From the IMG/VR virus record IMGVR_UViG_3300025133_000077, positions 10,703 through 74,702 of that record: a stretch of DNA of 64,000 nt, one strand, 5' to 3'. How positions within the stretch are numbered: the stretch's first letter is position 1; every line of letters starts with the position of its first letter. Position numbers and translations under genes: made by a program. The notes beneath the pieces were generated by a model. The model saw nothing but the letters and a program-made list of their open reading frames with translations, ran no database searches and was not told the origin of the DNA. Below, piece after piece: positions 1 through 60,998 of the stretch. Source of the DNA: a virus.

Positions 1-356
1 CCCGACTTCAGGCGGAACTGGTTGTCGACCTGCCGCTCCTTGCCGTCGACGATGTAGGAGTAGCGTCGGGTGATCTTGGGGATCTTGGCCACGGTGATCG
101 TGGACTTGTCGATCACCTCCCCCGTGGTCTTGTCGATCAGGGAGAGACGGGCCTTGACGGGCACTGCCCAGGAGCGCCCGTGCAGCTTCGCCTCCCGCTG
201 CGAGCGGATGTCGTCGAGGCTCAGGTCGTCGGCGACCCAACACTTCGACATCTCGAGGCGGCGGTTCTGTCCCTCGAAGGGGAAGTGATCGGCGACAGCC
301 TCCGCGACACGGCTCTTCAGCGTCTCGAAGGCCTCTTCTGGGTCGAGCTGGGCCAT
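1..356 (-). CDS. rpoB: DNA-directed RNA polymerase beta-like subunit, N-terminal part (runs off left edge)
   Basis: Not in the ORF track. Hand translation from ATG 356 (SD GAGGA): MAQLDPEEAFETLKSRVAEAVADHFPFEGQNRRLEMSKCWVADDLSLDDIRSQREAKLHGRSWAVPVKARLSLIDKTTGEVIDKSTITVAKIPKITRRYSYIVDGKERQVDNQFRLKSG, with no stop to base 1. Matches the RpoB N-terminal pattern E.K....Y..PL.V..RLI.K.TGEV.......G.IP.MT..G.FIING.ERV.V.QL.RSPG. Only 118 codons are visible. Confidence 0.8.
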   Translation of the reverse strand, partial: MAQLDPEEAFETLKSRVAEAVADHFPFEGQNRRLEMSKCWVADDLSLDDIRSQREAKLHGRSWAVPVKARLSLIDKTTGEVIDKSTITVAKIPKITRRYSYIVDGKERQVDNQFRLKS

Positions 357-384
357 AGATCCTCGGGCTGACGGACGTGGGGGC

Positions 385-414
385 AGTGTAAGGGACCCTT
401 GCAGTACAGCACAA
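385..414 (-). promoter_or_regulatory. sigma70-type promoter for the RpoB-like gene
   Basis: TTGTGC (414-409) - 18 nt - TACACT (390-385), upstream of ATG 356. Confidence 0.5.
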
Positions 415-438
415 TCACGGAGGATGCCACGGCATAAG
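410..438 (+). promoter_or_regulatory. putative phage promoter CRCAA-N15-CGGCATAAG, copy 1
   Basis: CACAA (410-414), 15 nt, CGGCATAAG (430-438); same motif and spacing at 5650-5678; heads a plus-strand operon. Confidence 0.6.
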
Positions 439-1439: not shown

Positions 1440-3446
1440 TCACACCAGCGCCCTGCCGGGGTCTCGCCGGGGCGGCTTCTGCGACGGGAGCGGAGACTGC
1501 TGCGCGTCGAGCGGGTCCCGGGTCTCCTTGGAGCCCTGCATGATCTGCAAGACCAGCGAGTAGAAGTGCGGCTGCGTCGACTTCATCTTCTGCATCGCCG
1601 CGTAGGCGTCCGGCGGCTTCGTCTTGAGCAGCTTCCGCAGCTCGTTCGCCGTCCGCTTGGCCACGTAGAAGACGTCCTGACCCGTGCCCGGGTCAGCCGT
1701 CAGCTGAGAGGACGCCTCCTGCGGGACGCCTGTGACCGGAGAGGACTGCCCGTTCTCCGGGTACAGCTTGGCCCCTGCCGGGCCCTCGACGGGGCCGCTG
1801 CCGCCCTCCTGGCCACCCTCCTGGCCAGGGCCGAGCTGCATGGCTCCGCCCCCGCCCACGAGGTCGGACTGGGCCGCCTGCATGTAGAGCTGCATGACCT
1901 GCTGAGCCTCGCCCTGGCCGACGGCCGCGGAGACCTGGGCCCGTCGCTGGTCCTCGGCCTGCTTCCTCGACTCGGAGCTGAGCAGCAGCCGCTCGGTCTC
2001 GTAGTCCTCGTTGAGTTCGCGCAGGAAGGTGTGGTCGGAGATCTTGTTGGCCTGGTTGGCCTGGAAGTAGATCATCGTGCGCTGCAGGTCGTCCGCCATC
2101 TTGAAGCGGCGGAACTTCTTGCCCACGCGGGGCCAGCCCAACCACGCGCCGATGGAGTCGAACACCCAGTCCGTGAGGCCCTGGATGTCGGCGCGGTAGT
2201 TGATGAACTCGTTCTCTAGGTTCCGCATGGAGACCTGCGTGCCGGAGTAGCCGAGGCCGCCGAAGATAAACTCCTGCGGGACGTGGAGGCCGGCGACGAT
2301 GTTCTCTGCCCAGACGCGGTACTCCTGGTGGAGCACCATCGCTCGGCCCTGGCCGCCGACCATCTGGTGTCCCACGGGGAGGGGCAGGATCGGGATGTAG
2401 TTGGGGTCCCGCCGCCACCGCTCGATCTCCTCCTCCATCTGGCTCTTCCAGCCGGTGAGGGGCATCGTGGTGTACGGGTCGCTGGTCCCGGAGCCGGGCT
2501 GCGGGAAGATCATGCGCAGCGGCACGATGTGCTCGCGGGCGATGGCTTCCTGGCCCTTCTTGAGGATCTGCAGGTAGTAGGAGTCCTTGAGCACCGGCAG
2601 GATGCGGGACAGACCCCAGCCCTTGTCGTTCCCGTTGCCCGAGATGGACGGGCGCCGCATGTGGAAGAGCTGGCCCGGGGCGAACCGGAGGCCGGTCTTC
2701 TTGCGGGCGGCCTCGACGAAGACGTTGGGGATCTCCTCCTGAAGGTGGTTCCTTCCGATCATCAGCCGCGCCCGCGTGCGGGGGCTCATCTCGTAGTAGT
2801 ACCTGCAGTGCCCGGTCTCCTCGTTCACATCGATGGCGATGCGCTCGGGGTCCCACCGGACGAGCCCGATCTTGTACGGGCTCCGCTGCCAGACATCGAG
2901 GGGCTTGGCGTTGCCCACCTTCCTGCACTTGGGGCAGGTGAGGCGGTAGTTCAGCTCCCGCCACTTGTAGTGGGGCCGCAGCTTCTTCGCCGGCGCCTGG
3001 TACTTGCAGTGGTTGCACTGCAGGAACTTCACGAAGGGGTAGTTGATCGAGGTGAAGGAGTTGCCGTAGCACTGGTAGTCCAGGCCGGTCTCCACCTGGA
3101 AGCTGCGGAACTTCAGGATCTGGTCCTTGAGGTACTTGTACTTCCGCGCCACCGCCTCGTGCTTGCTCTCGAACACCAGGTCGGTGATCGGGTACGAGGC
3201 CATCTTGTAGATGACCGCGTTCACCAGCGGGTTGGTGAAGAAGTAGTAGCGGCACCAGCGGAACAGCTTCTTCTGCGACGAGGGCAGGTAGGTGTGCGCT
3301 CCGTCGAAGAAGGGGCTGGGGTACGGCACGCCGGCCCGGCCCGAGGCCCCGAAGAAGCCCGAGCGCAGGTTGGCGAAGCCGCTGCCTCCGGCGGTGCCGC
3401 CGCTCACCCCGTACGTGGGCAGCCCGAAGTCGAATCCCTCAGCCAT
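1440..3446 (-). CDS. portal protein with zinc-ribbon insertion
   Basis: Portal-like pattern (NPLVNAVIYKMASYP, DYQCYGNSF, LFHMRR..GWGLSRI, IVAGLHVPQEFIFGG); CNHC...CPKC insertion; low-complexity C-terminus. Confidence 0.8.
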   Translation of the reverse strand: MAEGFDFGLPTYGVSGGTAGGSGFANLRSGFFGASGRAGVPYPSPFFDGAHTYLPSSQKKLFRWCRYYFFTNPLVNAVIYKMASYPITDLVFESKHEAVARKYKYLKDQILKFRSFQVETGLDYQCYGNSFTSINYPFVKFLQCNHCKYQAPAKKLRPHYKWRELNYRLTCPKCRKVGNAKPLDVWQRSPYKIGLVRWDPERIAIDVNEETGHCRYYYEMSPRTRARLMIGRNHLQEEIPNVFVEAARKKTGLRFAPGQLFHMRRPSISGNGNDKGWGLSRILPVLKDSYYLQILKKGQEAIAREHIVPLRMIFPQPGSGTSDPYTTMPLTGWKSQMEEEIERWRRDPNYIPILPLPVGHQMVGGQGRAMVLHQEYRVWAENIVAGLHVPQEFIFGGLGYSGTQVSMRNLENEFINYRADIQGLTDWVFDSIGAWLGWPRVGKKFRRFKMADDLQRTMIYFQANQANKISDHTFLRELNEDYETERLLLSSESRKQAEDQRRAQVSAAVGQGEAQQVMQLYMQAAQSDLVGGGGAMQLGPGQEGGQEGGSGPVEGPAGAKLYPENGQSSPVTGVPQEASSQLTADPGTGQDVFYVAKRTANELRKLLKTKPPDAYAAMQKMKSTQPHFYSLVLQIMQGSKETRDPLDAQQSPLPSQKPPRRDPGRALV

Positions 3447-4316
3447 CTACGCCGCCTTGCTCTGGAGGAGCCACGAGAACTCTCGGGCCTGCACAGCTTC
3501 CTGCTGGCGCCGGTGCACCATGTAGTTGTGGGCCACGAGCAGCTTGCCGCAGACGACATCCTCGCGCACATCGTCGCTCAGGTCTGCCCCTTCCCCACCG
3601 TGCACCTGCCTCCACCGGGCGGCGACCGGGCGGGGGTCGTTCTTGTAGAAGGTCGAGACGTTGCGGCCTACCTCGTCCGGGATGCCCCGCGCCGGCCTGC
3701 CGTTCACCGTCTTCTCGTCCATGTCCGGGTTGAACCGCCCCACGCAGACGTCGCACCGCCCATCCTCGAGGTCGTCGTCGTCCTCGTTGCCGCAGTCCCC
3801 ACAGCGGTAGGTGGGCTCGGCCACCACGCGCTGCGCGACGGCGAGGGGGCCCGGCAGGAACCAGACGCCGCGCTCCAGAGCCGAGGCCGCCATGAACCGG
3901 ACCACCTCCTCCTGGTACGGCTCCTTGCGGATGTCCGAGACCATGTCGACGGCCGCCATCATCTGGGCAACTGTCGGTTGCTGAAGTGTCATGAAGTCGG
4001 GGGTGTTGTTGTTCAGCGCCTGCACCAGAGGGGCAAACACCGACCACGACGACCAGAAGCCGTTGGCCAGCAGCAGGTTGCGGATCGCCTGGATCTTGTT
4101 CTTGTTCAGCGCGCTGACCGTCACCCTGTGGGGACGGGAGTAGTGCTTCTGGAAGAGCTCCGAGAAGTCCTGCTCGATCTCGTACCAGAGCACATCGGAG
4201 TCCCACTCCAGCCAGTCCGACTTGAACACCGCGAAGAGGAGCCCGGCCAACACCGCCGGGTGCGCGTCGTGGTAGCCGAAGAAGAGGGCCGGCGACTCAG
4301 GCGCTGATGGTTCCAC
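3447..4316 (-). CDS. hypothetical head-module protein with CxxC...CxxC zinc ribbon (289 aa)
   Basis: GTG 4316 with SD AGGAG; CGDC...CDVC; stop abuts portal start. Confidence 0.7.
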   Translation of the reverse strand: MEPSAPESPALFFGYHDAHPAVLAGLLFAVFKSDWLEWDSDVLWYEIEQDFSELFQKHYSRPHRVTVSALNKNKIQAIRNLLLANGFWSSWSVFAPLVQALNNNTPDFMTLQQPTVAQMMAAVDMVSDIRKEPYQEEVVRFMAASALERGVWFLPGPLAVAQRVVAEPTYRCGDCGNEDDDDLEDGRCDVCVGRFNPDMDEKTVNGRPARGIPDEVGRNVSTFYKNDPRPVAARWRQVHGGEGADLSDDVREDVVCGKLLVAHNYMVHRRQQEAVQAREFSWLLQSKAA

Positions 4317-5598
4317 GGGCGTGGCTCCTGCTGGCCGCCAGCCGCGCCACGACCACCTGCTTGGGGTAGGGCAGGGACTTGAAGACGGTGACGGGCTTCG
4401 CCATGAACTGGTCCGCCGCGTCATCGCCGAGCGCATCCCGGACACGGCCGAGGTCGTTGCGGGAGAGCCTCAGCAGGTCCGCCCCCGTCACCTTGTCGAT
4501 CCCCTTCATCCAGTGGTAGCCGGCGTCCTCGGACGCTGTCTTCTCGGAGAGGGCTGCGCGGTACGGGTCGGGCAGGGAGCGGTCCCACTCCTGGCTGAGC
4601 CCGTAGTGCTCGTCGAACTGCGTCAGCGCCTTGCCGAAGGCGTCGGGACCCTGGTGCGTGGCGACCGTGGCCAGCTTCATCAGGATGGCGCCGCCCCGCT
4701 CGTCGACCCGGCCCGCCCTGGCGTTGAGGTGGAGGACGAAGCTCTCGTTGAGCTGCTCGCCCCCGTACTGCGCCACCTTCTCGGTGACCTCGACCTCGAA
4801 GTGGTCGGCGGCGAGCTTGACGTTGCGGCAGTACTCCCGCCGGTCAGCGGGGTGGAAGCGGTCCCCGTACTCGTCGAAGTAGGCCATCGCCTGCTTGACC
4901 TGCTCTTCGGTGTCAAGCGGGTAGCGGTCGTCGAGGGCCGCCGTCTTCCTCCGGGAGTGTCGATCCAGTGCGGCGTACGCTCCGTAGCCTGCCCCGATGC
5001 CAAGAAGTGCGCCGCCCGCCCCCTTCGCTGCGCCACCGGCGGTGCGCTTCAGGGTCTCGGTCTTCGTCGCCCCCTGTTGCCGCGCCTTGCGGAAGCCGGC
5101 AGCCGCGCCGACCGTGCCTGCCCCAAGAGGGATGCCGGCCACGATGCCGGCTTCGATGAGGGTGAACGCCTGCTTCTCCCAGGCCCGGATGTCGACGACG
5201 GCCTCGGCGATGCCGGCCACCTTCATCAGCATGCCGTCGCGGGAGCCGATCTCGGGCACAGCCGAGGCGACCTTGGCGACGAGCCCGGGGACGGTGTAGC
5301 CGCCCTCGTCCATCGTCTCCATCAGCTTGATGCCGGCGACCACGGCGGCCGTCTTCGGCATCTGGTCCCAGGTCCGCTCGAGGTACTGGGCACTGAGCCA
5401 CGCCACCTCGGGCGAGGTGCAGGCGAACTTGCGGAGCTTGCCCTCGCTGCTGAGCATGACGACTCCGAAGTCGGAGTCGGGGTAGCGCGACAGCTCATCG
5501 CGCTCGGGCAGTGACGCGGTCGCCACCTTCTCGGGGAGTGAGACCGACGCTGCCTTGAGCAGCCCCGGTCCCAGATCGTGCGGGTCGACAGCGAGCAT
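4297..5598 (-). CDS. putative head/internal virion protein rich in K-x-A motifs, with glycine-zipper insert (433 aa)
   Basis: ATG 5598 with SD GGAGG; 14 of 25 Lys have Ala at +2; RYPLDT..QV..A..YF segment; next to portal. Confidence 0.7.
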   Translation of the reverse strand: MLAVDPHDLGPGLLKAASVSLPEKVATASLPERDELSRYPDSDFGVVMLSSEGKLRKFACTSPEVAWLSAQYLERTWDQMPKTAAVVAGIKLMETMDEGGYTVPGLVAKVASAVPEIGSRDGMLMKVAGIAEAVVDIRAWEKQAFTLIEAGIVAGIPLGAGTVGAAAGFRKARQQGATKTETLKRTAGGAAKGAGGALLGIGAGYGAYAALDRHSRRKTAALDDRYPLDTEEQVKQAMAYFDEYGDRFHPADRREYCRNVKLAADHFEVEVTEKVAQYGGEQLNESFVLHLNARAGRVDERGGAILMKLATVATHQGPDAFGKALTQFDEHYGLSQEWDRSLPDPYRAALSEKTASEDAGYHWMKGIDKVTGADLLRLSRNDLGRVRDALGDDAADQFMAKPVTVFKSLPYPKQVVVARLAASRSHARGTISA

Positions 5599-5619
5599 GG
5601 GGCCTCCGATGACGGCTCG

Positions 5620-5649
5620 ATGATGTCTGCGGAGACGTCCTGATGTCAA
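5620..5649 (-). promoter_or_regulatory. sigma70-type promoter for the head/portal operon
   Basis: TTGACA (5649-5644) - 18 nt - CATCAT (5625-5620). Confidence 0.55.
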
Positions 5650-5678
5650 CGCAAGAACCCCGAGGATCTCGGCATAAG
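5650..5678 (+). promoter_or_regulatory. putative phage promoter CRCAA-N15-CGGCATAAG, copy 2
   Basis: CGCAA (5650-5654), 15 nt, CGGCATAAG (5670-5678); heads the 18-kb replication operon. Confidence 0.6.
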
Positions 5679-5710
5679 GACAGTGCCTACCAACAACAGG
5701 AGCCTATCAG

Positions 5711-6082
5711 ATGGCGATCAGCCGGGTCGGTGCTATCCCCGACCCTCCCTGCTTCGGCAAGCCCAGTTTTTACAACGAACGAGACGAGGACTGCCGCACC
5801 TGTCACGCGAAGATCAGGTGCAAGGTCCAGGTCCGACAGAAGAAGAAGGGAGTCCCTGCCAAGAGCAAGAACTCCCGAGTCGACAGATCCTCCGTGGTGG
5901 AGGAAGATGACGCCCCCACTTTCAGGACCAGGAAGGAGCGCTCGACCACCTGGTTCGGCGCCCTCAAGCACAACTCCTTCATCCGGCTGTGTTCCACGTT
6001 CTTCCGCGAGCTGGCGTTCGGGGTGGAGCAGATTCCTTTGGAGCCGTACTCGGACCAGGAGGCGGAGGAGATCGATGACTGA
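5711..6082 (+). CDS. Cys-cluster protein (PPCFGK...CxxC...C)
   Basis: SD AGGAG upstream; first gene of the operon; overlaps next start. Confidence 0.7.
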   Translation: MAISRVGAIPDPPCFGKPSFYNERDEDCRTCHAKIRCKVQVRQKKKGVPAKSKNSRVDRSSVVEEDDAPTFRTRKERSTTWFGALKHNSFIRLCSTFFRELAFGVEQIPLEPYSDQEAEEIDD

Positions 6083-6533
6083 CACCATCAACATCGGGGG
6101 GCTCATCCGGGCTGCTCGAAAGACGCGCTTCGGCAGCATGAGGAAGGCCGCAACGGCCATCGTCATCACGGATGCTCGTGGCACCCGCTCCCTGTCGGGA
6201 GAGGGGCTGCGGAAGATCGAGACGGGCCTCTCCCTCCCGTCTGCGAACGTGCTTAGCGCCCTGATCACCGGGTGGGAGCTCGGCAAGAAGGAGGCCGACC
6301 AGCTGCGGTACGCCGTGCATGCGGCGCACGAACGCAAGGCCGGCTACGAGCCCCGGCAGAAGGAGGACCTCGGAGAGAACCGAGAGGCGGTCATCGCCTC
6401 TGCCGTCGGCGACATCCTCAGCAAGAGCAAGATCCTCGTCGAGGGGATGGTCGAAGAGGAGGATGACCAGGAAGCCTTCCTGGAGGAGCTGAAGACGATC
6501 GCGGACAAGACGCTGCGAGAGTACTTCCGGTGA
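6075..6533 (+). CDS. XRE-family helix-turn-helix protein
   Basis: IGGLIRAAR...LSGEGLRKIETG.SLPS pattern; ATG 6075 with SD GGAGGAG. Confidence 0.75.
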   Translation: MTDTINIGGLIRAARKTRFGSMRKAATAIVITDARGTRSLSGEGLRKIETGLSLPSANVLSALITGWELGKKEADQLRYAVHAAHERKAGYEPRQKEDLGENREAVIASAVGDILSKSKILVEGMVEEEDDQEAFLEELKTIADKTLREYFR

Positions 6534-7864
6534 CCCTGTACACCTTCTGCAGGAGGGACCCGGGCAGCGCCTACATCGACCGGAATCTCTGGCTGCCGAA
6601 GGTGCGGCTGGGCCTCCGGCCTATCAAGCAGCGGCTGTCCTTCCGAGTCGCGACCGGCAAGAACCGGGACAAGATCGTCAAGATGTTCGCCTACCGAGAG
6701 GAGGAACATCACCTGGTTGTGCCCCGCAACTTCATGCCTCCCCAAGAGCTGCTCGACCAAGACATCCCCGTCATCGATCTGCGCCCCGCGTCTTACCCTC
6801 GGGTGGTGATGGCGCACTCCATCATCCCCCGGCCTCATCAGGTGGAGCCGCTCGCGAAGCTGGAGAAGATCGGCGACGGCACCCTGAACGTGGGGTGCGG
6901 CCGAGGCAAGACGGTGATGGCGCTGTACGAGGCCGCTCGAGTGGGCGCCCCGACGATGGTCATCTGCCAGAACAGCTCCATCCTCCAGCAGTGGGAGAGG
7001 GAGATCAACGACAAGCTCGACTTCAACGGAGACGTGCGGTGGGTCAAGGGGAAGGGCCTGCCGGGAGACGACACCTCCTTCGCCCTCGCCACCATCCAGT
7101 CCCTCTACGACCGAGCGGGGGAGCTGCCTCGCAGCTTCACGCACAGGTGGGGGACGGTCATCTTCGACGAGGCTCACCACGTCTCGGCCCCGAAGTTCTC
7201 GAAGGCCGCGGACATCTTCCCAGGGAGGAGGCTGGCGCTCACCGCGACGGCGAAGAGGAACGACGGGCTGGAGAAGATCTACCAGTACCACCTCGGCGAC
7301 ATCTTCCACGTGGACCTCACGCAGGACCTGGTGCCGAAGATCATCTTCCTGGAGTTGCCGGGCTTCGAGCCACCGAAGAGCGTGTACGACGACGTCAGCC
7401 TCAAGACCTGGCTGTCCAAGAACCCCGACTACAACGCCATCATCGCCAAGGAGACCCGCGCCGCTTTGAAGAAGGGGCGGACGGTGATGGTGCTCTCACA
7501 TCGAGTCGATCAGCTGCTCGCTCTGGAGAAGCTGGTGCCTGCGGGCAAGGCCATCTACGGGCCCGTCAAGTTGGAGGACCGCGACGAGATCCTCCGCTCC
7601 GCCAACCCCATCTTCGCGTCCATGAACCTCGCCCAGGAAGGGCTTGATCGGCCTCAGCTCGACACCGTGCTGTGTGCCACTCTCTTCAGCAACCCCAACT
7701 CGTTCCAGCAGGTCGCCGGACGAGCTCTCCGAGAGTTCGCAGGGAAGATGGACCCCGTCATCGTCTTCTGCGTCCCCACCATCCGCCGCTGCCGCAACCA
7801 AGCGAAGCGGCTCGCTACCTTCGCCCGCAAAGCGGGCTACCCCGTGGAGTACCACCGAGCATGA
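6530..7864 (+). CDS. superfamily 2 (DEAH) DNA helicase, UvsW/ResIII-like
   Basis: Motifs GCGRGKT, DEAH, TAT, EGLDRP.LD, QVAGRALR. Confidence 0.9.
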   Translation: MTLYTFCRRDPGSAYIDRNLWLPKVRLGLRPIKQRLSFRVATGKNRDKIVKMFAYREEEHHLVVPRNFMPPQELLDQDIPVIDLRPASYPRVVMAHSIIPRPHQVEPLAKLEKIGDGTLNVGCGRGKTVMALYEAARVGAPTMVICQNSSILQQWEREINDKLDFNGDVRWVKGKGLPGDDTSFALATIQSLYDRAGELPRSFTHRWGTVIFDEAHHVSAPKFSKAADIFPGRRLALTATAKRNDGLEKIYQYHLGDIFHVDLTQDLVPKIIFLELPGFEPPKSVYDDVSLKTWLSKNPDYNAIIAKETRAALKKGRTVMVLSHRVDQLLALEKLVPAGKAIYGPVKLEDRDEILRSANPIFASMNLAQEGLDRPQLDTVLCATLFSNPNSFQQVAGRALREFAGKMDPVIVFCVPTIRRCRNQAKRLATFARKAGYPVEYHRA

Positions 7865-8268
7865 GCAACACCAAGAAGAACGTCAGCAAGCTGGCCGTCG
7901 TGATGATGGTCAACCGGACCGCCTGGATCGGCAAGATCTACGACACCGACGAGCCGCCGACCATGATCCGGGACGCATCCATCGCGTTCCTGAACCCGCA
8001 GAAGGGCCCGCAGCCGGACATGATGGCGCTGTACCCCATCCGCATGCCCTACGGGCTCGCCGGCGAGACGCTGAAGCGTCTCCGCCTGAACCCCGTCAAC
8101 GTGGAGTCCTGGGCCTTCGTCGAGGACATGACCGCCCTGGACCAGAAGCAGATCAAGGGCTTCCTCAAGATCCAGAACGAGCGCGAGTCCAACGACGGCG
8201 CCACGGCGGCCGGGATCGTCCTGCCCACCGGACAGGACATGGAGGCCATCCGCCGAGGCCGCCGATGA
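7861..8268 (+). CDS. hypothetical protein (135 aa)
   Basis: ATGA overlaps at both ends; strong GC3 bias. Confidence 0.75.
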   Translation: MSNTKKNVSKLAVVMMVNRTAWIGKIYDTDEPPTMIRDASIAFLNPQKGPQPDMMALYPIRMPYGLAGETLKRLRLNPVNVESWAFVEDMTALDQKQIKGFLKIQNERESNDGATAAGIVLPTGQDMEAIRRGRR

Positions 8269-9011
8269 TTCCGACGCTCAAGGATCTCTTCGAGATCTAC
8301 GTCACCAACGAGTGCGACAAGTGCCCGCGGTTGGTGGAGAGCAGGACCAGCCTCGTGTTCGGTGAGGGGCACCTCGACCCGGACATCGTGGTGGTCGGGG
8401 AGGCTCCGGGGTACTGGGAAGACGACCTGGCTCGCCCCTTCGTGGGTCAGTCAGGCGTCCTCCTGGACTCCTTCCTCGCCTACTTCGGCCGGAAGTCCAA
8501 CTCCTCCCTCTGGGCCGTCGGCGAGTCCGTCTCCAAGGGGAAGGAGCTCTCCGGCGACGTCGCCGACACCGTTCGTGATGCCCTCATCGAGACGGAGAAG
8601 GTGCACTACCTGAACGCCGTGCTCTGCCGGCCGCCGGAGAACGTGGCGCCCAACCGCCTGGAGCTGGAGGCCTGCCGAGAACGGCTCGTCCAGACCATCT
8701 ACCGCCTGGACCCCCTGATCGTGCTGGCGTGCGGCAAGGGGGCCGCCAAGTCCCTGCTCGGGAAGACGCTGAACGTGCAGGACAACCGGGGCCAGGTCTT
8801 CGACCTCGAAATCCCGGGGGTAACTGGCGGCATCAGGTACCCGATGCTCCTGACGTACCACCCCTCTTACGTCAATCGCGTGGGGGACTTCTTGAGCAAG
8901 ACCGGGCCGGGTGTGCAGTTCGCGGAAGACCTCGAACGGCTCTTCACCCTGACCGATGAGACCCGACATCTGACCTGTGGCATGGAGATGCCCGAGAGGA
9001 GGAAGTGGTGA
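8265..9011 (+). CDS. udg: uracil-DNA glycosylase, family 4 (Fe-S)
   Basis: CDKC, VGEAPG..E...RPFVG.SG, LCRPPEN, C, TYHPS. Confidence 0.92.
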   Translation: MIPTLKDLFEIYVTNECDKCPRLVESRTSLVFGEGHLDPDIVVVGEAPGYWEDDLARPFVGQSGVLLDSFLAYFGRKSNSSLWAVGESVSKGKELSGDVADTVRDALIETEKVHYLNAVLCRPPENVAPNRLELEACRERLVQTIYRLDPLIVLACGKGAAKSLLGKTLNVQDNRGQVFDLEIPGVTGGIRYPMLLTYHPSYVNRVGDFLSKTGPGVQFAEDLERLFTLTDETRHLTCGMEMPERRKW

Positions 9012-9475
9012 TCCCGAAGAACGTGGAAGACGTGGACACCAGCGCTGCCGAAGAGGCGGTGCAGGCGTTCGAGGAAGCGGAGGAAGAGTTCAAGGCTCTC
9101 CTCCAGGACATCAAGGACAGCCTGGGAGAGGACTGGTACGAGTACCTCCTCGAGACCATGGACAAGCGGCGGACCCTCTGCACCCGGGCGCGGCAGGCCG
9201 TGCGCGGGGTGAAGACGGGGGTGGGCAACTTCGGCGTCCGCGCCGTCACGAAGAACGCATGGGACCCGGCGGCGGCCGTGGAGCTGGCTCGGGTCCGCGA
9301 CGAGCGGGACGAGCTCATCGACGCCGGGGTGCTGAAGTACTCCTTCGACCACAAGCGCGCGAGCGAGGTCCTCGAGCCGCACGTCATGGCCATCTACAAG
9401 GAGAAGGCGCACAGCACCTACCCCGGCACCACGCAGGTCCTCGGCCCGAAGCCGGACGATGACCTCTTCAAGTAG
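9005..9475 (+). CDS. hypothetical protein
   Basis: Coupled ORF with typical codon bias. Confidence 0.7.
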   Translation: MVIPKNVEDVDTSAAEEAVQAFEEAEEEFKALLQDIKDSLGEDWYEYLLETMDKRRTLCTRARQAVRGVKTGVGNFGVRAVTKNAWDPAAAVELARVRDERDELIDAGVLKYSFDHKRASEVLEPHVMAIYKEKAHSTYPGTTQVLGPKPDDDLFK

Positions 9476-9812
9476 GACGACGCCCCGCATCATGATCCGG
9501 CGCAGCGCTGTGAAATCCGGGATGGCCCCGGAGGACCAGTTCTGCGACGATTTCCAGCCCTCGGAGGAGCACATGGACAAGGCGAAGAAACTGGTGGGCA
9601 ACGGCAAGGCGGAAGTGTCCGTCGGCATGGACATGGGGGAGAAGGACTTCGGCAACGGCTTCGGCGTCTTCGTCTCCGTGAAGCTCACATGCAACCAGGA
9701 CGAGAACTCGATCGATGCGGCGCAGGCCCTCGGCCAGGAGATGGTCAAGAGCTACATCGAGATGCAGCACGGAGAGGCGAAGGACCTGTACCAGTACCTC
9801 GCGGGAACCTGA
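9459..9812 (+). CDS. hypothetical protein (start uncertain: 9459/9492/9522)
   Basis: Coupled ORF with typical codon bias. Confidence 0.65.
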   Translation: MTSSSRTTPRIMIRRSAVKSGMAPEDQFCDDFQPSEEHMDKAKKLVGNGKAEVSVGMDMGEKDFGNGFGVFVSVKLTCNQDENSIDAAQALGQEMVKSYIEMQHGEAKDLYQYLAGT

Positions 9813-10060
9813 TGGGGCTGCCCATCGCCGAGAACGACCTCTTCACCGCCAGCCTGATCAAGCTCGAACTCGAGCGGGCTGACGGAACGGGGGCCGTGTT
9901 CCAGCTGATGTACGAGGTCGAGATCCGCAATCGGAGTACCGGCGTTCACGCCGTGCTCCGTGCGCGGGACCTTCCTCCGGACATCCAGGGGCACCTCCAG
10001 GAACTGCGCGCCATGCTCGAGCAGCACGCCGGCGAGAGGCTCTTTTCAACCGGCACGTAG
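9812..10060 (+). CDS. hypothetical protein (82 aa)
   Basis: TGATG overlap with the upstream stop. Confidence 0.65.
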   Translation: MGLPIAENDLFTASLIKLELERADGTGAVFQLMYEVEIRNRSTGVHAVLRARDLPPDIQGHLQELRAMLEQHAGERLFSTGT

Positions 10061-10068
10061 GAGACGCA

Positions 10069-13834: not shown

Positions 13835-13846
13835 TCAACCTGAGCC

Positions 13847-13872
13847 TGGGGCGGCCCTTCGGGGCCGCCCCA
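13847..13872 (+). terminator. 11-bp hairpin with C(UUCG)G tetraloop
   Basis: TGGGGCGGCCC-TTCG-GGGCCGCCCCA between the SSB-like gene and polA; no U-tract. Confidence 0.65.
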
Positions 13873-13885
13873 TTGGAGGACCTCG

Positions 13886-15901: not shown

Positions 15902-15937
15902 AAAATAACTCATTTCGGATTGGGGTATGCTGGCGCC

Positions 15938-17126: not shown

Positions 17127-17128
17127 TC

Positions 17129-17302: not shown

Positions 17303-17360
17303 ACCTCCTCTCCTGAGGAGCCAGAGACGGGCCTGTGACGCAGGCTCGAAGGAACCCCCT

Positions 17361-54371: not shown

Positions 54372-54580
54372 TCTCGTGTCAGGGAGGACAGCTCATCTCG
54401 AAGGAAGATCTCCGCCGTCTCCGCGTTCTTGCGCGTCAGTGTACTCGATCCGGTCATCCCTTCCAGCACAGAGCCCAGGTAGTCGACCTCGTTCTTGATC
54501 CGCTTCTTCTCCTTGTCGATCCACTCCCGCGTGGCGTCTTCCAGGTCGTTGAGAGCGGCTTCCTGGCGGTCAGAAGGCAT
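54368..54580 (-). CDS. small helical protein
   Basis: Coupled to the sigma gene and the next gene. Confidence 0.65.
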   Translation of the reverse strand: MPSDRQEAALNDLEDATREWIDKEKKRIKNEVDYLGSVLEGMTGSSTLTRKNAETAEIFLRDELSSLTRE

Positions 54581-55370
54581 CGCGATACAGCCGGATCTTC
54601 TCGTACACCCGCGCCTTGATGCGGGAGACGGTCGGCGCGGAGACGCCCAGGTCCTTGGCGATCTCGCCGGTACCCTTCTTCGGCTTGCCGTTCAGGCCCA
54701 GGGAGTGCTCCAGGACGTAGTTCTCCCGCTGGTCGAGCTCGTGCTTGATGAGGGAGAGCACCTCGCGGTCCCGGCTCGGCATGTAGAAGGTCGGGTCCGA
54801 CATGCCCTCGGCCTCGAAGCCGGAGGCGATGTAGTCCATGCGCTGCTCGGCCTCCATGCGCTGCACCTCGGCGAGAGGCCAGCCCAGCCGGGCGGCCATC
54901 TCCATCGTGGTCGGGTCGCGCATCAACTCGTCCTTCGCCTCCTCCTTCGCCGTCTTGTACTCGGTGATCTTGTCGATGCGCTTCTCGGGCATGTAGCCCA
55001 CGTTCTGGTACTTCTTGATGAAGCGGCCGGACTTGCGGACCTGGCCGTGCACGAAGGTCCCCAGCGCGGCCGGCTTCCCTGTGGTCTTGCCCAGCTTGGT
55101 CGGATCGTACTTCCGCAGCGCCGTCAGGAACTGCTTGTTCACCTCGGCCTCGATCACAGCCGGTGGGACGGGGACCTTGTTCTGGTACAGCCGGACCCGG
55201 TTGTTGAGCACCCCGCGGAACTGCTTGAAGAGGGGGTCGAGCTTCTCGGGATGCTCCCCCGAGTCCTTCCACTCCTGCCACAGCTCCAAGTCCTTCTGCT
55301 GACGTGCCTTCAGCTTCGGGTTGTGCTTGGCGGCCATCGCCACCTTGGCGAACTGGTCCTTGGCGCTCAT
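54570..55370 (-). CDS. sigma70-family group-3 (FliA/WhiG/SigF-like) sigma factor
   Basis: Region 2 AL.KYDP.K...LGTFV; region 3 LMRDPT..EMA.RLGW; region 4 LDQRE..VL....GLNG......EIAKDLGVS..TVSRI. Confidence 0.88.
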   Translation of the reverse strand: MSAKDQFAKVAMAAKHNPKLKARQQKDLELWQEWKDSGEHPEKLDPLFKQFRGVLNNRVRLYQNKVPVPPAVIEAEVNKQFLTALRKYDPTKLGKTTGKPAALGTFVHGQVRKSGRFIKKYQNVGYMPEKRIDKITEYKTAKEEAKDELMRDPTTMEMAARLGWPLAEVQRMEAEQRMDYIASGFEAEGMSDPTFYMPSRDREVLSLIKHELDQRENYVLEHSLGLNGKPKKGTGEIAKDLGVSAPTVSRIKARVYEKIRLYRDAF

Positions 55371-56734
55371 CCCGGGATGACGTTCCCCGGCCGCGGCACG
55401 GCGGCCTGCTGGTTGTTGGTGGGCGTGGGGGAGGGGCCGGCGGTCTGCAGCTTGTTGAGCTGCTTCATCTGCACGGCCTGCGAGCCCTTGGTGGGGAACT
55501 GCGGGCGCTTGATGCCGGCCATGCCGTTCATGCGGCCGTCGACCGAGGCAGCGAATGCCTCCTTCGCGATCCCCTTCTTCTTCGCGTCCTCACGGAGCTT
55601 GCGGTCGATGAGCCCCGCTCCCGCACCGACACCGCCCCAGATGAGGCGGCCCTTCAGCGTGGCCGGCTCCTCGCCCCGGAGGAACTCGTGCGCGCCCAGG
55701 CCCAGCGCTCCGCCCGCCCCGGCGCCGGCGGCGTAGGGGCGGGTCGCCTCGATGCCGGTCAGCAGCTTGTGGTACGCGGACGCCGCCGCCTTCTCCGACT
55801 CCCAGACCCGCGTCCACGCATCCTTGTCCGGGTCGAAGGGAAGATCCGCCTTCCTGGTGCGATTCTTGGCCTTGCGCAACCACTTCTCAGACTTCGGGTG
55901 AGTTCGTCCGAACGCACGTGCCCTCGGAGGAACACCGATGATGGCTTCCGGGTCGTCCAAGCCCGTGGCCATCAGGCGCTGGTGCAACGCCTCGGAACTC
56001 GGGAAAACCCGCTGCTCGGATCGGATGAGGGGGTTGGCTTTGCCGGGTCCCGAGAGCTGCTCGACCCGGCGGTCAAACGAGCGCTGACCCGCGTTCTCCC
56101 ATCTCCGGGAACTGGCCATCTCCGACTTGAGATGATCTTCCCTCTCCCGCAGACCCGCCCAGAGTCCCTGTGCCTCCGCGTCGCTTCGACCGCGGAGGAC
56201 GTGTCCTGTGCCCACCCCCAGAGCACCGCCGACCCCTGCCCCTACCAGCGCCCGCCGCTTGGCAGCTCTTGCTCGCTCACCCTTCGGCCTGCGCATCGCC
56301 GAGAGCGCTCCCACACCGGCCCCCGCACCGGCCCCAACAAGCCCTTCCACGATGGCCGGGTGCACCTCCGCCGCCTTCTGCTGGAACTGCGCATACTGGG
56401 CATGTTGGGCCTGCTGCGCCTTGTGCTGCTTCCACGCCCGGTGAGCCTTGTAGGCTCCGTAGCCTCCCAAGGCCGTCAGGGCCGTGCCGGCTGCGAGGGT
56501 CCGTCCCTTGTAGACCCGCATCGGCGTGCGGGTCTTGGCCCCCGGGGCCCTGTTCTCGAAGCCGAGCCGCACAGCGTCATTGACCCCGGTGCCCGCCCGC
56601 TTCTCCTGCTCCTTCTTGATGAGGGCAGTGACGTTGATCGGGATCTTCCCCTTCCGCACCTTGGGCACGGGGGACATCTGCTGGGAGGCCGCGATCTTGA
56701 TGGCCTCATCGACGAAGGGACTGTTCTGAGTCAT
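55367..56734 (-). CDS. basic glycine-zipper protein segmented by K-x-A motifs, putative internal virion protein
   Basis: KIA, KRA, KAA and KEA delimit modules with GxxxG stretches (GAGAGAGVGA, GAGVGGALG, GAGAGGALG). Confidence 0.65.
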   Translation of the reverse strand: MTQNSPFVDEAIKIAASQQMSPVPKVRKGKIPINVTALIKKEQEKRAGTGVNDAVRLGFENRAPGAKTRTPMRVYKGRTLAAGTALTALGGYGAYKAHRAWKQHKAQQAQHAQYAQFQQKAAEVHPAIVEGLVGAGAGAGVGALSAMRRPKGERARAAKRRALVGAGVGGALGVGTGHVLRGRSDAEAQGLWAGLREREDHLKSEMASSRRWENAGQRSFDRRVEQLSGPGKANPLIRSEQRVFPSSEALHQRLMATGLDDPEAIIGVPPRARAFGRTHPKSEKWLRKAKNRTRKADLPFDPDKDAWTRVWESEKAAASAYHKLLTGIEATRPYAAGAGAGGALGLGAHEFLRGEEPATLKGRLIWGGVGAGAGLIDRKLREDAKKKGIAKEAFAASVDGRMNGMAGIKRPQFPTKGSQAVQMKQLNKLQTAGPSPTPTNNQQAAVPRPGNVIPG

Positions 56735-59700
56735 CCGAGGAGTCCTCTGTAGCCGGTGAGGTCGCCCAGGTAGAGCAGCACCCGGAGGCTTCGTTCTATG
56801 CGAGGATCCATGGTTTTGTCCACCAGCCTCTCGTGGAGCCCGTTCACGTCGGGCAGGGGCGCGTCCGGGTTCGTCAGCAGCCCCTTCAACCCGTCGAGGT
56901 TGGCGATGGCCCGGCTGGAGAAGCCCTCCCAGCCGGTCGTAATGGTACCGGAGCCCTGCTCGAACTCCAGGTCATCGCTGCCCAGCATCTCCGAGAGCGT
57001 GGCGATGGGGCGGTAGATGTAGTTCTGCACGAAGCGGTTGGCGTCGAGGGCGCTGGACGCCTTCACCGTGCCGTAGAGGATGGCCAGGATGTCCACCGCC
57101 TCCGCCACCGAGATCTCCTTGTTGATCGCGATTTGCTCCCGCCTCTTTGCGCTCGCCGTGGACGACGTCCCCGTGGCCGCCAGCGGGTCCACCGTCGATC
57201 CGGTTGCGTTGGCGAGCGTGGAGTCTCGGACGTTCTGTCCGCGCTCGATTCTCTTGGAGATGTTCATCTCGTCGACGACGGCGCCGGTCCCGAACCAGGG
57301 CTGGTAGACGTCCGCTCCGATCTGGTCGTTGTAGTACGAGGGCGAGAACCACGCCGGGAAGATGGAGCTCTCGAAGGGGAGGTCGACCCGCACGCTCCTG
57401 AGGGCCGCTCTCTCCTCCGGGGTGTACTCCTCCTCCTCGTAGATCTGGACGGTGGTGTAGAGCAGGTGTCCCTTGGCGGCGTCGCCCTCCCGTACCAAGC
57501 CGGTGATCGACTTCGTCGAGCGCTCGTACTGCAGGAACTCGCCGCTGGTGCGAATCTGGGTGATCTTCCCGCCCTTCGGCCCGCTGTCCCCCTCCACTCG
57601 CAAAGCCCCCGCGGCGTCCCGCGTGGCAGCGGGCACCTTCCCGTCGTCCCCGGGCTGTGGCGTGCACTTCCTCACCCAGCCGATGGCGGCAGAGTCTCCG
57701 TCCTGTACGGCCTCGCGCGCATCGAAGGTGGTCACCGTCGCGAAGCGAGAGAGCTCCCTCCCCGACTCCAGCGACAGCCGGAGGTACTCGTCGTCCGTGC
57801 CGTCCGCGCCCATGTGGACTCGAACATGCGAGAGGCCGACAGAGGTGGTGCCTCCCTGCTGGTTCAAGGAGTGCGACAACGTCGCCACCATGCCAATCAG
57901 CTGGGACGGCATGTAAACGTCCTTGCCCCCCAGCTTGAAGGGGATCTCCTTCTTCTGTGCGGCAGCGATGTAGTCGTCCATCGACACCCCCACCAGGGGC
58001 GGGGCGGGGCGACGAATCACGACGGCCGGGAACCCGGGGACGGGGTAGGGGTTGAAATAGCCGGACAGCTCTGCCGTCCGGCTGGCGAAGCGCTCCCGGA
58101 AGAAGTTGAAGCCTGCCGTGGCGTTGGCGAAGTCGTCGGGTTCCGAGCCCTGACCTCGCCCCGCCCGTGCGATGTCCTGGTCCTGGTTCGACCAGAAGTG
58201 GAATGAGGCGAGTCTGTCGAGCTTGGGAATGATCCCCGTGAACCGTTCGTGCTGCATCAGCAGCGCCTGGCGCAACTCCCCGCCGCCTCCCTGCGCCTGC
58301 AGGATCGATTTGAACTCGTCCGTCCTCGGCGCGTAGTAGTACTTGTCGCGGAGCTCCCGGCCCTTCGAGCCGTCCTCGATGATCTCGATGTGCGAGCGGA
58401 GCTGGTACCGGGTGATCTCCCGCATGTAGTTCCGCTGGAAGTTCAGCCGCGTGTACATCTCCGGGAAGAAGACGTTGCACCTCGGCGGAGCCACGAACCA
58501 GACGTCGGGCCGAAAGACCTGCGTCAGTACCCGCGCCCCTCGTCGCTTGTCGGCCGGAGTCATCTCCCCCTGGTCCCTCGGCGGAGGCTTGGGCTTCGCA
58601 CGCGCCTCCACGGGAGTCCCCGAGAGGTAGAGGTCCGCCTCCCTGGCCCGCCGGCGGGTGAGCCCGGGCATCACCTCGCCCTTCGAGGTGTTCACTCCTG
58701 CACGGATGGACCGGGAGGCAGAGGTGTACCGCCTCTCGTTGTGCAGGCGGACGGTGCGGGCGAACGTCTCGTGGTTGCCGGCGTTGTAGTAGAAGCTGAA
58801 GAGGGCGTCGAACTGCTCCTGCGTCGTCGGGGTCCCTGCGATCTTGCCGCGCACGGTCGCCTGCCGCGACTCGAGGTCCTCCTCGAACAGCGCGCTCATC
58901 TCCTCCTCGGTCATCGCTCGGCCGCCGGGAGCGTTCAACAGGTGAATCGAGAAGCGGGCCTTGTCCGCCTCGTCCTTGATCAGGTGGCCGTACCCGATAG
59001 TGGGGAACCCCTCCATCTCGTAGGAGGAGACCGACTGCCCAGTCGCGTCGTCGTAGACGAATGCCCGCCCGCCCTCCAGACCGTGCAGCGCCCTGCGGCC
59101 CTCCTCCGACACGGAGAAGGTCTCCCCGGGCTTGCCCACGCCGTCCGGCAGCTCTTCGACGGGCCCTGTGCCGCTGTAGGCGTTGGCGGCCACCATGGCG
59201 TCGCCAAGGACGTACCGAGCCACGGGGTTGGGCACGACCTCATGGTAGATGTAAGCGTTCAGAAGGTTGATCACATCCCGGATGCTGATCAGCCCGCCCT
59301 GCTGCGCCAGCCGTCCCGTGATCCATCCGATGAAGGAACCTGCGCTGAACAGTTCGTTGGCGGCCTCGTCCCCCTGAACCGCGGCGATCTGGAAGAGATT
59401 CTTCAGCCGCAGTTCCGAGATGGTCTCGAAGTCGTTCATCCCGACCAGCTGATCCGCCACCCCGCCCACGCTCTCCAGGATGCGGATGATTCCTGCCAGC
59501 AGCCCAGTGACTCCTTGCAACGCCGGAGTGCTCGGCTGGCCGCCCTGCATGATGGTCCGCATGGTCATTGCCGGGCTCTCGTCCCCGACGTTCGAGAAGA
59601 CGTAGCCCTCAGACCCCAGGAACTTGAGCGCGTTGTCGGTGTGGGAATCGTTGCCCTCTGAACCGACGTTGATCATGAACTGGTAGGTGGAGCTCCAGTG

Positions 59701-60048
59701 GCTCGCGGTGTCCATGCACTGCAGCACGACGGCTCTCGACGTGGGGGTCTGCACGAACTGGAAGCCCAGCACCTCTCCGTGGAACAACAGCCGGTAGTGC
59801 GGGCGGGAGTCCTCGTTGACGAAGTCGCTCTCGATGAAGCCGCCCACCTCGTGCTCGAAGTCGCGGAAGAAGAGGTGCACCAGTGTCCTGGGCCGCAGCT
59901 CCATCGCCCTGTCCGTGGCGAGGATCTGGATGTTGGCCGACGCACTGCCTCCGATGGCGGCCGACACCTGCGCGCCGATCACAGGCACCTCCTGCCCCTC
60001 CAGGAAGAGGCGGAGCTTGAGCTGCTTGCCGACGCCCGAGGCAGTCAC
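56731..60048 (-). CDS. baseplate hub-like protein with inserted GH24 (T4/P21-type) lysozyme domain
   Basis: LRLFLEG.EVPVI N-terminus; LEG....YDD...PTIGYGH...QFDAL.SF.YN.G...GLTRRR..EA.LY at about 58620-59115; TAGTG overlap gives start 60048. Confidence 0.78.
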   Translation of the reverse strand: MTASGVGKQLKLRLFLEGQEVPVIGAQVSAAIGGSASANIQILATDRAMELRPRTLVHLFFRDFEHEVGGFIESDFVNEDSRPHYRLLFHGEVLGFQFVQTPTSRAVVLQCMDTASHWSSTYQFMINVGSEGNDSHTDNALKFLGSEGYVFSNVGDESPAMTMRTIMQGGQPSTPALQGVTGLLAGIIRILESVGGVADQLVGMNDFETISELRLKNLFQIAAVQGDEAANELFSAGSFIGWITGRLAQQGGLISIRDVINLLNAYIYHEVVPNPVARYVLGDAMVAANAYSGTGPVEELPDGVGKPGETFSVSEEGRRALHGLEGGRAFVYDDATGQSVSSYEMEGFPTIGYGHLIKDEADKARFSIHLLNAPGGRAMTEEEMSALFEEDLESRQATVRGKIAGTPTTQEQFDALFSFYYNAGNHETFARTVRLHNERRYTSASRSIRAGVNTSKGEVMPGLTRRRAREADLYLSGTPVEARAKPKPPPRDQGEMTPADKRRGARVLTQVFRPDVWFVAPPRCNVFFPEMYTRLNFQRNYMREITRYQLRSHIEIIEDGSKGRELRDKYYYAPRTDEFKSILQAQGGGGELRQALLMQHERFTGIIPKLDRLASFHFWSNQDQDIARAGRGQGSEPDDFANATAGFNFFRERFASRTAELSGYFNPYPVPGFPAVVIRRPAPPLVGVSMDDYIAAAQKKEIPFKLGGKDVYMPSQLIGMVATLSHSLNQQGGTTSVGLSHVRVHMGADGTDDEYLRLSLESGRELSRFATVTTFDAREAVQDGDSAAIGWVRKCTPQPGDDGKVPAATRDAAGALRVEGDSGPKGGKITQIRTSGEFLQYERSTKSITGLVREGDAAKGHLLYTTVQIYEEEEYTPEERAALRSVRVDLPFESSIFPAWFSPSYYNDQIGADVYQPWFGTGAVVDEMNISKRIERGQNVRDSTLANATGSTVDPLAATGTSSTASAKRREQIAINKEISVAEAVDILAILYGTVKASSALDANRFVQNYIYRPIATLSEMLGSDDLEFEQGSGTITTGWEGFSSRAIANLDGLKGLLTNPDAPLPDVNGLHERLVDKTMDPRIERSLRVLLYLGDLTGYRGLLG

Positions 60049-60998
60049 TACGCCATGCCTCCCCACGGAGCGGGCCCGCCCATGTCGAAGTCAGGCAACG
60101 CCACGACCGCGTTGCCCTCGGTCCCGCTGCTCAGATCATCCGGCAGCGCAGCAGGGCTGCCTCCCGGAGAGATGACGCCCCGGGCTTCGTCCTCGATCCA
60201 CGCGTACGTCTTGTAGGGCTCGTCGACGAGGTCCTCGGCGGCGAACAGCGAGTCCGCGATCTCCCTGCCCTCCTGCACCAGGTACTCGTCGACGTTGTCG
60301 GAGATGTTCCCTCCCGTCACCGGGATACCCTCCTGATCCAGGAGGCGGTTCATGTTCGCGACCCGAGCGTGCTCATCCGCAGTGCGGGCGACTCGGTAGG
60401 GGCGAGGGAACTGCGTAGAACCCACCCGGCTGACGTCGACGTACCCCGTGACCCAGAAGGAGAAGGTGAGGCTGACGAAGTTGGGGTTGGGGTCGGCGAC
60501 GCTCTGGGTGTTGGCGTCGAGCATGTAGCCCTCGACGACCTTGTTCTCGGCCTGGATGTACATGCGTGCGTCGGCCTGGACCAAGCGCGTGCCGCGGAAG
60601 ACGTGCTCGTAGTTGTGCCACCACTCGGAGTGCCAGTTGAAGTCCGGCGTGCTCACCAGGGAGCCTGAGAACTGCAGCACCCGGGGCCGCTCCCCGAAGA
60701 AGAAGCCGAAGGTCTCGCCGAAGGTCTCGAGCAGCTGGTACTTCTCCTGCCGGGCTTCGTTGATCTGCCGAACGATGAAGTTGGCCGTGGCCGACGAGGT
60801 GCCTGACTTCCCGCTGGAGTTCGCCAGCGGGATGCGGGACCCGTTCTTCCGGATCACTCGGATGTTGGTGTAGGACGGCGCCCCCAGCTGGATGCCGCGC
60901 AGAGGCCTACGCACTGCGAAGTCGTTGGGCGTGGACCTCGCCACTCCGTTGGTGTGCCGGTCGAAGGCGTCCTCCTCGATCAGGACGAAGACAGCCAT
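60048..60998 (-). CDS. tail/baseplate protein downstream of the tape measure
   Basis: E.RQEKYQL.ETFGE...FFFGERP..L.FSG.L motif; position. Confidence 0.65.
   Translation of the reverse strand: MAVFVLIEEDAFDRHTNGVARSTPNDFAVRRPLRGIQLGAPSYTNIRVIRKNGSRIPLANSSGKSGTSSATANFIVRQINEARQEKYQLLETFGETFGFFFGERPRVLQFSGSLVSTPDFNWHSEWWHNYEHVFRGTRLVQADARMYIQAENKVVEGYMLDANTQSVADPNPNFVSLTFSFWVTGYVDVSRVGSTQFPRPYRVARTADEHARVANMNRLLDQEGIPVTGGNISDNVDEYLVQEGREIADSLFAAEDLVDEPYKTYAWIEDEARGVISPGGSPAALPDDLSSGTEGNAVVALPDFDMGGPAPWGGMA

Follow-up and report, generated by a model that had tools for sequence, protein, structure and literature searches.

A predicted single-chain, bacterial-type RNA polymerase with fused beta and beta' regions in a marine tailed phage

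A 64,000-nucleotide stretch of viral DNA from the IMG/VR record IMGVR_UViG_3300025133_000077 (referred to here as the window) opens, on its minus strand, with the 5' end of a phage RNA polymerase (RNAP) gene. The complete product of this gene (P0002; 2,099 amino acids) joins the beta and beta' regions of a bacterial-type RNAP in one polypeptide with, as judged from its domains and motifs, intact catalytic elements, and that it is a single-chain, catalytically competent RNAP can hardly be doubted on its sequence. The source is a marine tailed phage of about 188 kb, found in marine metagenomes (DNA sequencing runs, with no RNA run listed), and the family to which its RNAP belongs is very large. 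With moderate confidence we extend this to a fuller picture, that of a single-chain RNAP that would use a sigma factor, do without alpha and omega subunits, be packaged in the virion and probably be insensitive to rifampicin. Cellular-type RNAPs of phages and virion RNAPs are already known, and the pieces of the enzyme of Salmonella phage Arash have been annotated and noted in virions; what is apparently new is a large family of single-chain, minimised, cysteine-depleted and sigma-equipped RNAPs distinct from the mReC clade, a published metagenomic lineage of phages with multi-subunit RNAPs. Neither the fused enzyme nor the family as such is described in the literature found, a limited search that is no proof of their being unpublished.

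The gene and the single-chain architecture of its product

The window covers bases 10703-74702 of a 74,702-bp record that CheckV rates as about 40% complete, and the 10.7 kb to its left were added for extension of the gene. Within the window, a minus-strand frame stays open from position 356 to base 1, and its translation carries RSWAVPVKARLSLIDKTTGEV, IPKIT and YSYIVDGKERQVDNQFRLKS, all exactly as quoted in a first-pass annotation made from the letters alone, which had taken the frame for the start of a diverged phage RpoB-like subunit. The frame is missing from the default list of open reading frames (ORFs) because it runs off the window edge. It is a genuine coding sequence and no chance ORF of GC-rich DNA: its G+C content at the third codon position (GC3) is 0.95 against 0.41 at the second, a pattern like that of the real genes of the window, where GC3 is near 0.9 and the overall GC content is 66.6%. 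The part inside the window (1..356, minus strand) holds the first 118 codons and two bases of codon 119, which correspond to the N-terminal beta lobe region; by itself, this 118-residue fragment matches a phage RpoB-like PHROG (E = 9e-4) and no Pfam family. The ATG at 356 is likely the true start, since an alignment of 14 family members begins at this residue (consensus MAxLxPExAFExLK) and GAGGA, the presumed ribosome-binding site, lies 3 nucleotides upstream on the coding strand. A start further upstream was considered and rejected, as the frame is open to a TTG at 482 but the extension is unsupported by homologs.

To the left, the frame continues for 6 kb beyond the window to a stop at record base 4759, which gives 2,099 codons in total (P0002; record bases 4759-11058, L002:4759-11058, minus strand). 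The leftward extension and profile search proposed in the first-pass annotation did reveal Rpb2 domains downstream, and the beta' motif NADFDGD that it had suggested looking for is present in the same frame. Pfam Rpb2_3 and Rpb2_6 match the first half of this one ORF and Rpb1_1-5 the second (best E = 5e-61); PF00562 (Rpb2 domain 6) scores over its gathering score with an E-value of 4.9e-61, and GRHGNKG is found at 787-793 and NADFDGD at 1382-1388. The NCBIfam models for rpoC (E = 1e-167) and rpoB (E = 1.5e-117) both match far under their equivalog cut-offs (TIGR02386, 560 bits against 963.5; TIGR02013, 348 against 801). The protein is thus no RpoB-like subunit but a fusion of beta and beta'.

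P0002 was mapped on E. coli beta and beta' (NC_000913) inside a 54-row alignment. At the junction (...MGLDVE|KKGDEMQLKPLTDKQV) the C-terminus of beta joins beta' at about residue 15 with almost no linker. Several segments of the E. coli subunits have no counterpart in P0002, namely beta 226-343 and beta 934-1043, which we take to be SI1 and SI2, beta 1123-1176, beta' 64-81 (zinc ribbon, C70/72/85/88), beta' 944-1132 (beta'SI3) and the beta' C-terminal tail. What remains includes the bridge helix, the trigger loop and the two elements on which sigma docks, namely the beta flap tip (719-746) for region 4 and the beta' clamp helices (~1189-1240) for region 2. Zinc site II is retained (C1730/1791/1798/1801), whereas zinc site I lies in a deleted segment, and the whole protein has 6 cysteines in 2,099 residues (0.29%). 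P0002 shares its domain order, catalytic motifs, beta-to-beta' polarity and sigma docking elements with the bacterial core and with the Helicobacter/Wolbachia fusions. However, it is about 650 residues shorter than E. coli beta plus beta', about 30% identical, and devoid of SI1, SI2, SI3 and the N-terminal zinc ribbon. In the canonical bacterial enzyme, separate beta and beta' subunits assemble on an alpha dimer with omega and beta' has two zinc sites; P0002 departs from both. A sigma-compatible, bacterial-type core in one chain, a quarter smaller than the E. coli enzyme and independent of alpha and omega, would offer a minimal model for core assembly and for the parts that can be dispensed with.

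In the rifampicin pocket, the positions of E. coli D516, H526 and S531, at which resistance arises, are occupied by N, G and T in P0002; across the family the change of S531 to T is invariant, and H526 is replaced by G or N. Because these pocket residues are replaced, P0002 is probably insensitive to rifampicin, and the fused RNAP could serve as a compact transcription module that probably has this property.

The fused family, its cultured relatives and the proposed virion role

A word-index search recovered more than 100 clusters of related proteins (2,040-2,130 residues, 42-79% identity), the contigs of which reach 220 kb, and a protein identical to P0002 is also encoded on a contig of 188,377 bp. 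A HMMER search of 1.84 billion representatives with a 401-residue fragment spanning the junction gave 845 matches at E <= 1e-30; in the best 150 of these (down to 3e-63) the junction is crossed within one protein in every case. Among 103 relatives of 2,000-2,200 residues, the junction is constant in length and conserved in sequence, and ADFDGD occurs in 103/103. Exactly four cysteines, the zinc site II ligands, are present in 92 of the 103 and none in two, as compared with 12-36 in a sample of bacterial beta plus beta' and 16-38 in mReC enzymes. We also note that many RNAPs of the family are longer (2,400-3,700 residues) because they include intein or LAGLIDADG/homing-endonuclease domains (PF14528, PF05204, PF14890), with examples among the related proteins and loci P0012, P0030, P0040, L098, L106, L128 and L139.

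The family is not confined to metagenomes and has cultured members. In a tblastn search of GenBank phages, the best real phage matches to P0002 are those of Vibrio phages D181, D148 and D69 (~187 kb) and of Salmonella phage Arash, a myovirus of 180.8 kb, with about 29-31% identity across 70-96% of its length. The Arash and D69 enzymes come in two pieces, beta with the N-terminal part of beta' (~1,525 residues, ending after NADFDGD) and the C-terminal part of beta' (~606 residues), unlike the uninterrupted P0002; the first piece is encoded right after the portal gene and one small gene, and the second a few genes further on. These enzymes are likewise cysteine-poor (5-6 cysteines) and lack alpha and omega partners, and Arash shares with the present phage the order of portal, small gene(s) and RNAP as well as a block running from a hydrolase to a sigma factor. 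In the paper on Arash the RNAP pieces are labelled 'beta' and 'beta'', and the fusion is not taken up (OQ632216, PMC10585845).

Accessory subunits and copy number were examined in three relatives with 100%-complete genomes (193-210 kb; terminal repeats in one) and in Arash. No match to alpha (PF01000) or omega (PF01192) was found in these four genomes, while the controls were positive in 14 of 14 genomes, and each of the four has one RNAP locus. At least one sigma70-type gene is present in each of the five genomes searched. In the window, this is g50 (54570..55370, minus strand), a sigma-70-family factor of 266 residues with no cysteine, which scores over the Pfam cut-off for region 3 and just under it for region 4, matches phrog_351 and is an orthologue of Arash Gp10 (29% identity, E = 6e-22).

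Based on these features, we propose that the covalent beta-beta' link replaces the assembly platform provided by the alpha dimer, such that alpha and omega would be unneeded; neither is recognisable in the complete relatives. The phage sigma-70-type factor would supply promoter recognition, a role suggested by the retention of both sigma docking sites, the flap tip and the clamp helices. We consider it likely that the RNAP is sigma-dependent and works in the absence of alpha and omega. Somewhat less firmly, we favour a scheme in which the RNAP, probably together with sigma, is packed in the capsid, enters the cell with the DNA and starts phage transcription independently of the host polymerase. 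Such a mechanism would be analogous to that of the phiKZ/AR9 and crAss-like virion RNAPs, which are phage two-barrel enzymes injected to start transcription. Freshly synthesised RNAP would probably transcribe later genes too, because it is the product of the only RNAP gene in these genomes.

Packaging is supported by the proteomics of Arash, by the conserved position of the gene in the virion module and by shared cysteine depletion. In liquid chromatography-mass spectrometry of gradient-purified Arash particles, the RNAP piece Gp206 gave the most spectra of any protein (3,516, with 128 unique peptides and 100% coverage); the other RNAP piece, Gp216, gave 1,210, the portal Gp204 877 and the sigma factor Gp10 467 with 100% coverage (PMC10585845). 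The order portal, RNAP and g01, the last encoding a probable central spike, is conserved in 23-29 related loci, and the portal gene also lies upstream of the RNAP in Arash. In their cysteine content, the RNAP (0.29%) and the sigma factor (0%) group with the cysteine-poor proteins of the virion block, several of which lack cysteine altogether, and not with the replication proteins (~1-3%).

An alternative to packaging is that the single-chain RNAP is real but made only after infection from early genes transcribed by the host, and that it serves only middle or late transcription, the Arash signal being carry-over. The Arash list of 116 proteins includes clearly metabolic enzymes and its authors raise carry-over (PMC10585845). 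In addition, each genome has one RNAP locus, whereas injectors of the phiKZ type carry a second, non-virion set (PMC7824862). We nevertheless regard this alternative as unlikely, though as the most serious of those considered, since in the gradient-purified particles Gp206 exceeds all structural proteins in spectra at full coverage, the portal-RNAP-spike order is kept across dozens of loci, and RNAP and sigma are as extremely depleted of cysteine as the proteins of the virion block.

Several points weigh against the packaged, sigma-dependent enzyme that we favour. The case for packaging leans on a single proteomic study, made on a relative with 30% identity, in which carry-over of abundant cytoplasmic proteins is possible; the 116 proteins listed there as 'virion' include ribonucleotide reductases, kinases and helicases, and the authors themselves give both explanations, cargo for early transcription or carry-over (PMC10585845). 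Position in the structural block and low cysteine content are circumstantial with respect to packaging. Sigma use is deduced from docking elements and co-occurrence, and the phage sigma may act on the host polymerase instead and redirect it. The search for alpha and omega used Pfam profiles only, which a very divergent analogue would escape, and, with a record about 40% complete in which no capsid gene was identified, the phage's own capsid and terminase genes and further sigma or RNAP genes may lie outside it.

If the fused RNAP is packaged and injected, it would represent a third solution to starting phage transcription, beside the single-chain enzymes of N4 and crAss-like phages and the multi-piece enzymes of the phiKZ type. 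With hundreds of clusters at 50% identity, it would rank as very common in metagenomes, marine and other, and tractable members such as Arash and Vibrio phage D69 are already in culture.

Phylogenetic position among two-barrel RNA polymerases

Concatenated beta and beta' trees were built from 17 named bacteria taken from a GTDB scan, E. coli, family members, Arash, D69 and loci from an IMG/VR profile scan. The bacterial matches of the GTDB scan are 28-32% identical to P0002, with no closer cellular relative among them. A single clade far from Bacteria unites the fused family with the Arash-type enzymes and some further split variants, with 100% support by the Shimodaira-Hasegawa-like approximate likelihood-ratio test (SH-aLRT) in three trees, and the mReC-type viral loci form a clade of their own, also with 100% support, apart from the fused family. 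When 1,355 conserved columns were analysed under the LG+C20 model with the RPB1 of giant viruses as outgroup, each of three groups, mReC (100), Bacteria (98) and the fused family (100), came out monophyletic, and together they form a trichotomy. In another of the trees, the RPB1 rows of giant viruses join close to Bacteria, weakly supported, and one long RPB2 row sits basal to the fused family. These trees point to the fused family as a distinct deep lineage apart from both Bacteria and mReC, a remote sisterhood with mReC being neither shown nor excluded. The tree with cellular and phage RNAPs that had been suggested in the first-pass annotation places P0002 outside cellular RpoB/RpoC and, together with the Rpb2 domains and NADFDGD, bears out its reading of a diverged phage two-barrel enzyme.

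Fully fused forms occupy the basal branches of the clade and the Arash-type split group is nested within it, from which we consider a fused ancestor probable and the Arash split a later event. Other splits are seen within the clade of the fused family. For example, the gene in L111 is cut at the beta/beta' junction (603 + 1,030 residues), and that in L130 is split between the N- and C-terminal parts of beta' (1,257 + 576 residues). Breakage of the RNAP gene has thus occurred at more than one site, depending on the sublineage.

The two lineages to which the first-pass annotation had turned for the contig's affiliation, mReC and the phiKZ/AR9-like jumbo phages, do not fit. Membership of mReC (Weinheimer & Aylward 2020, PMC7481178), with secondary fusion of its two genes, appears improbable. 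There are resemblances: mReC members are tailed phages of large size known without culture, their beta/beta' pair is bacterial-like, branches deeply and is detectable by standard profiles, and the subunits of one class are compact (beta ~1,000 residues and beta' ~900 residues). Further, in one tree rooted on giant-virus RPB1 the unrooted split places mReC and the fused family together, weakly (70% SH-aLRT), and the terminase of Arash weakly matches PF03237, the TerL family reported for mReC. However, mReC-type enzymes are encoded by separate genes, in two sets in some genomes, and are cysteine-rich (16-38 cysteines). In the loci taken to be of the mReC type (L135-L152, including L140) the gene order is beta' then beta, the reverse of bacterial rpoB-rpoC, and this order cannot yield a beta-to-beta' fusion by simple read-through. 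Their identity to P0002 is 24-28%, below the bacterial 28-32%, and they form a separate clade with full support, which under the site-heterogeneous model is one arm of the trichotomy with Bacteria and the fused family. In about 47 rows of the published mReC list, beta and beta' are always two different proteins, of two size classes and never fused, and capsids of the T4 type (PF07068) are reported for the lineage (PMC7481178), as against the Arash capsid, which has a weak match to PF05065 (HK97-type) only and none to PF07068; the genome search with PF07068 returned no match in any genome, control genomes included. As further observations on the mReC-type loci, the beta'-to-beta order is not mentioned in the covered passages of the paper (PMC7481178), and L143 and L152 make up a third subgroup, in which the subunits are larger (about 1,280-1,530 residues). 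Phage beta/beta' polymerases extend beyond the published mReC clade, a point to consider when RNAP is used as a deep marker of phage evolution.

Cellular DNA misbinned as viral, either a bacterial rpoB-rpoC locus or a fusion of the Helicobacter/Wolbachia type, can be set aside almost entirely. The beta/beta' fusion model NF007172 is the best NCBIfam match of P0002 by E-value, but it scores 598 bits, far under the cut-off of 5,372 (and NF011417 scores 537 against 4,632), and the best cellular identities are about 30%. A long branch parts the family from all sampled bacteria, and an orthologue is present in cultured phages. Neither rplL nor rpsL lies nearby; the gene is set among those for a portal, a tail spike, a polyvalent protein and phage replication, together with giant virion ORFs.

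An RNAP of the phiKZ/AR9 type is equally hard to credit, because the weak PHROG matches of P0002 to phage 'RNA polymerase beta subunit' families (E = 4e-24 to 9e-8) are local, as against full-length PHROG matches at 1.9e-140 and 1.6e-83, and the P0002 gene is unsplit, in one locus per genome and accompanied by a sigma factor, while phiKZ-type RNAPs consist of four or five polypeptides, in two sets and with no sigma (PMC7824862). The crAss RNAP is a single chain described as too divergent for the COG0085/0086 profiles (PMC7481178), and differs in this from P0002, which matches Rpb1/Rpb2 Pfam domains.

More speculatively, the family may constitute a third ancient lineage of bacterial-type RNAPs, equal in rank to Bacteria and mReC, in which a self-sufficient two-component holoenzyme (a chain of ~2,050 residues and a small sigma factor, with neither alpha nor omega), depleted of cysteine down to the four zinc ligands or to none so as to survive outside the cell, would be injected and run the whole programme of a ~190-kb phage with no contribution from the host polymerase. 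We put this forward tentatively, as an idea with rather less than even prospects; if true, the enzyme would be the smallest natural sigma-dependent RNAP of the cellular type.

Genomic neighbourhood of the polymerase gene

The RNAP gene lies in the virion gene block and on the virion strand, and its neighbours in the window are small phage genes and a portal gene, as the first-pass annotation had it. Four small ORFs on the opposite strand separate the RNAP start from the portal gene g09 (1440..3446, minus strand; 668 residues), which is upstream of the RNAP gene on the same strand, and whose product is 31% identical to Arash gp204. Although g09 has no Pfam or PHROG match, its AlphaFold model (16 homologues; pLDDT, the predicted local distance difference test score, of 61, with a core above 85) retrieves only phage portals as top Foldseek matches in the PDB, including those of lambda (8xot, E = 1.5e-7), HK97, HFTV1, T1 and T4, and the predicted fold confirms g09 as a portal. 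The g09 portal also has four invariant cysteines in a CxxC...CxxC arrangement (144, 147, 171, 174), which resembles an inserted zinc ribbon, and a long, poorly conserved Gln/Pro-rich extension at its C-terminus. Portals are greatly enlarged in some loci of the family, for example in L106 (a 1,953-residue ORF) and L139 (1,292 residues).

On the other side of the RNAP gene, g01 follows directly in most related loci. Its product is all-beta, with an N-terminal barrel similar to those of the membrane-piercing spikes P2 gpV (Z 8.4) and phi92 (Z 8.0), and with further structural matches to the R2 pyocin spike, the Mu baseplate and VgrG. With a pLDDT of 51 the model is poor, and the Z scores are middling; the assignment of g01 as a probable central spike also uses a sequence motif. 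In this phage and a few relatives only (L093, L098, L118), two genes are inserted between RNAP and g01. The first encodes P0003, a polyvalent protein of 1,100 residues (record bases 1467-4769, L002:1467-4769, minus strand) with InPase (E = 2e-39), GNAT and SET domains, in the middle of which is a long Ala/Pro-rich stretch of low complexity. The start of the P0003 gene overlaps the RNAP stop by 11 nucleotides; P0003 is possibly an injected cargo. It is followed by a 125-residue endonuclease (L002:1111-1488) and then by g01.

The RNAP gene and the small plus-strand ORFs diverge from an intergenic region (357..423) that contains the ribosome-binding site of the RNAP gene. A motif of the form CRCAA-N15-CGGCATAAG begins inside this region (copy 1, 410-438, plus strand) and recurs exactly at 5650-5678 (copy 2, plus strand); both copies head runs of plus-strand genes, divergent from a minus-strand virion gene. 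These two copies are the only ones in the window, a count matched by 3 of 100 shuffles, and the 9-mer is not enriched. The motif is a candidate promoter for the phage holoenzyme, a role that is not established.

The replication block (6530-18572, plus strand) encodes an SF2 helicase, DnaB, a family A polymerase and a UvsX-like recombinase. It also contains a gene for a 454-residue protein (12470-13834, plus strand) with 2.2% cysteine and a sub-threshold match to the anti-sigma-G 'Gin' family (E = 1.5e-4), which is probably zinc-binding.

The virion block runs on the minus strand from 24382 to the window end and includes five consecutive giant ORFs of 1,838, 1,568, 761, 2,140 and 921 residues (24382-29898, 30561-35267, 35267-37552, 37847-44269 and 45193-47958), which have no family match, a GC3 near 0.9 and, in most cases, very little cysteine; that of 2,140 residues is weakly similar to Arash gp13. 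For the proteins of this block (921, 455, 350, 316 and 922 residues, together with the giants), no useful Pfam or PHROG match was found beyond one sub-threshold PKD-domain. The same block encodes g52 (56731..60066, minus strand; 1,111 residues), which has a Phage_lysozyme domain and is an orthologue of the virion cell-wall hydrolase Gp8 of Arash, and the orthologues of Arash gp6 (g53), gp8 (g52) and gp10 (g50) are collinear with gp6-gp10 of that phage.

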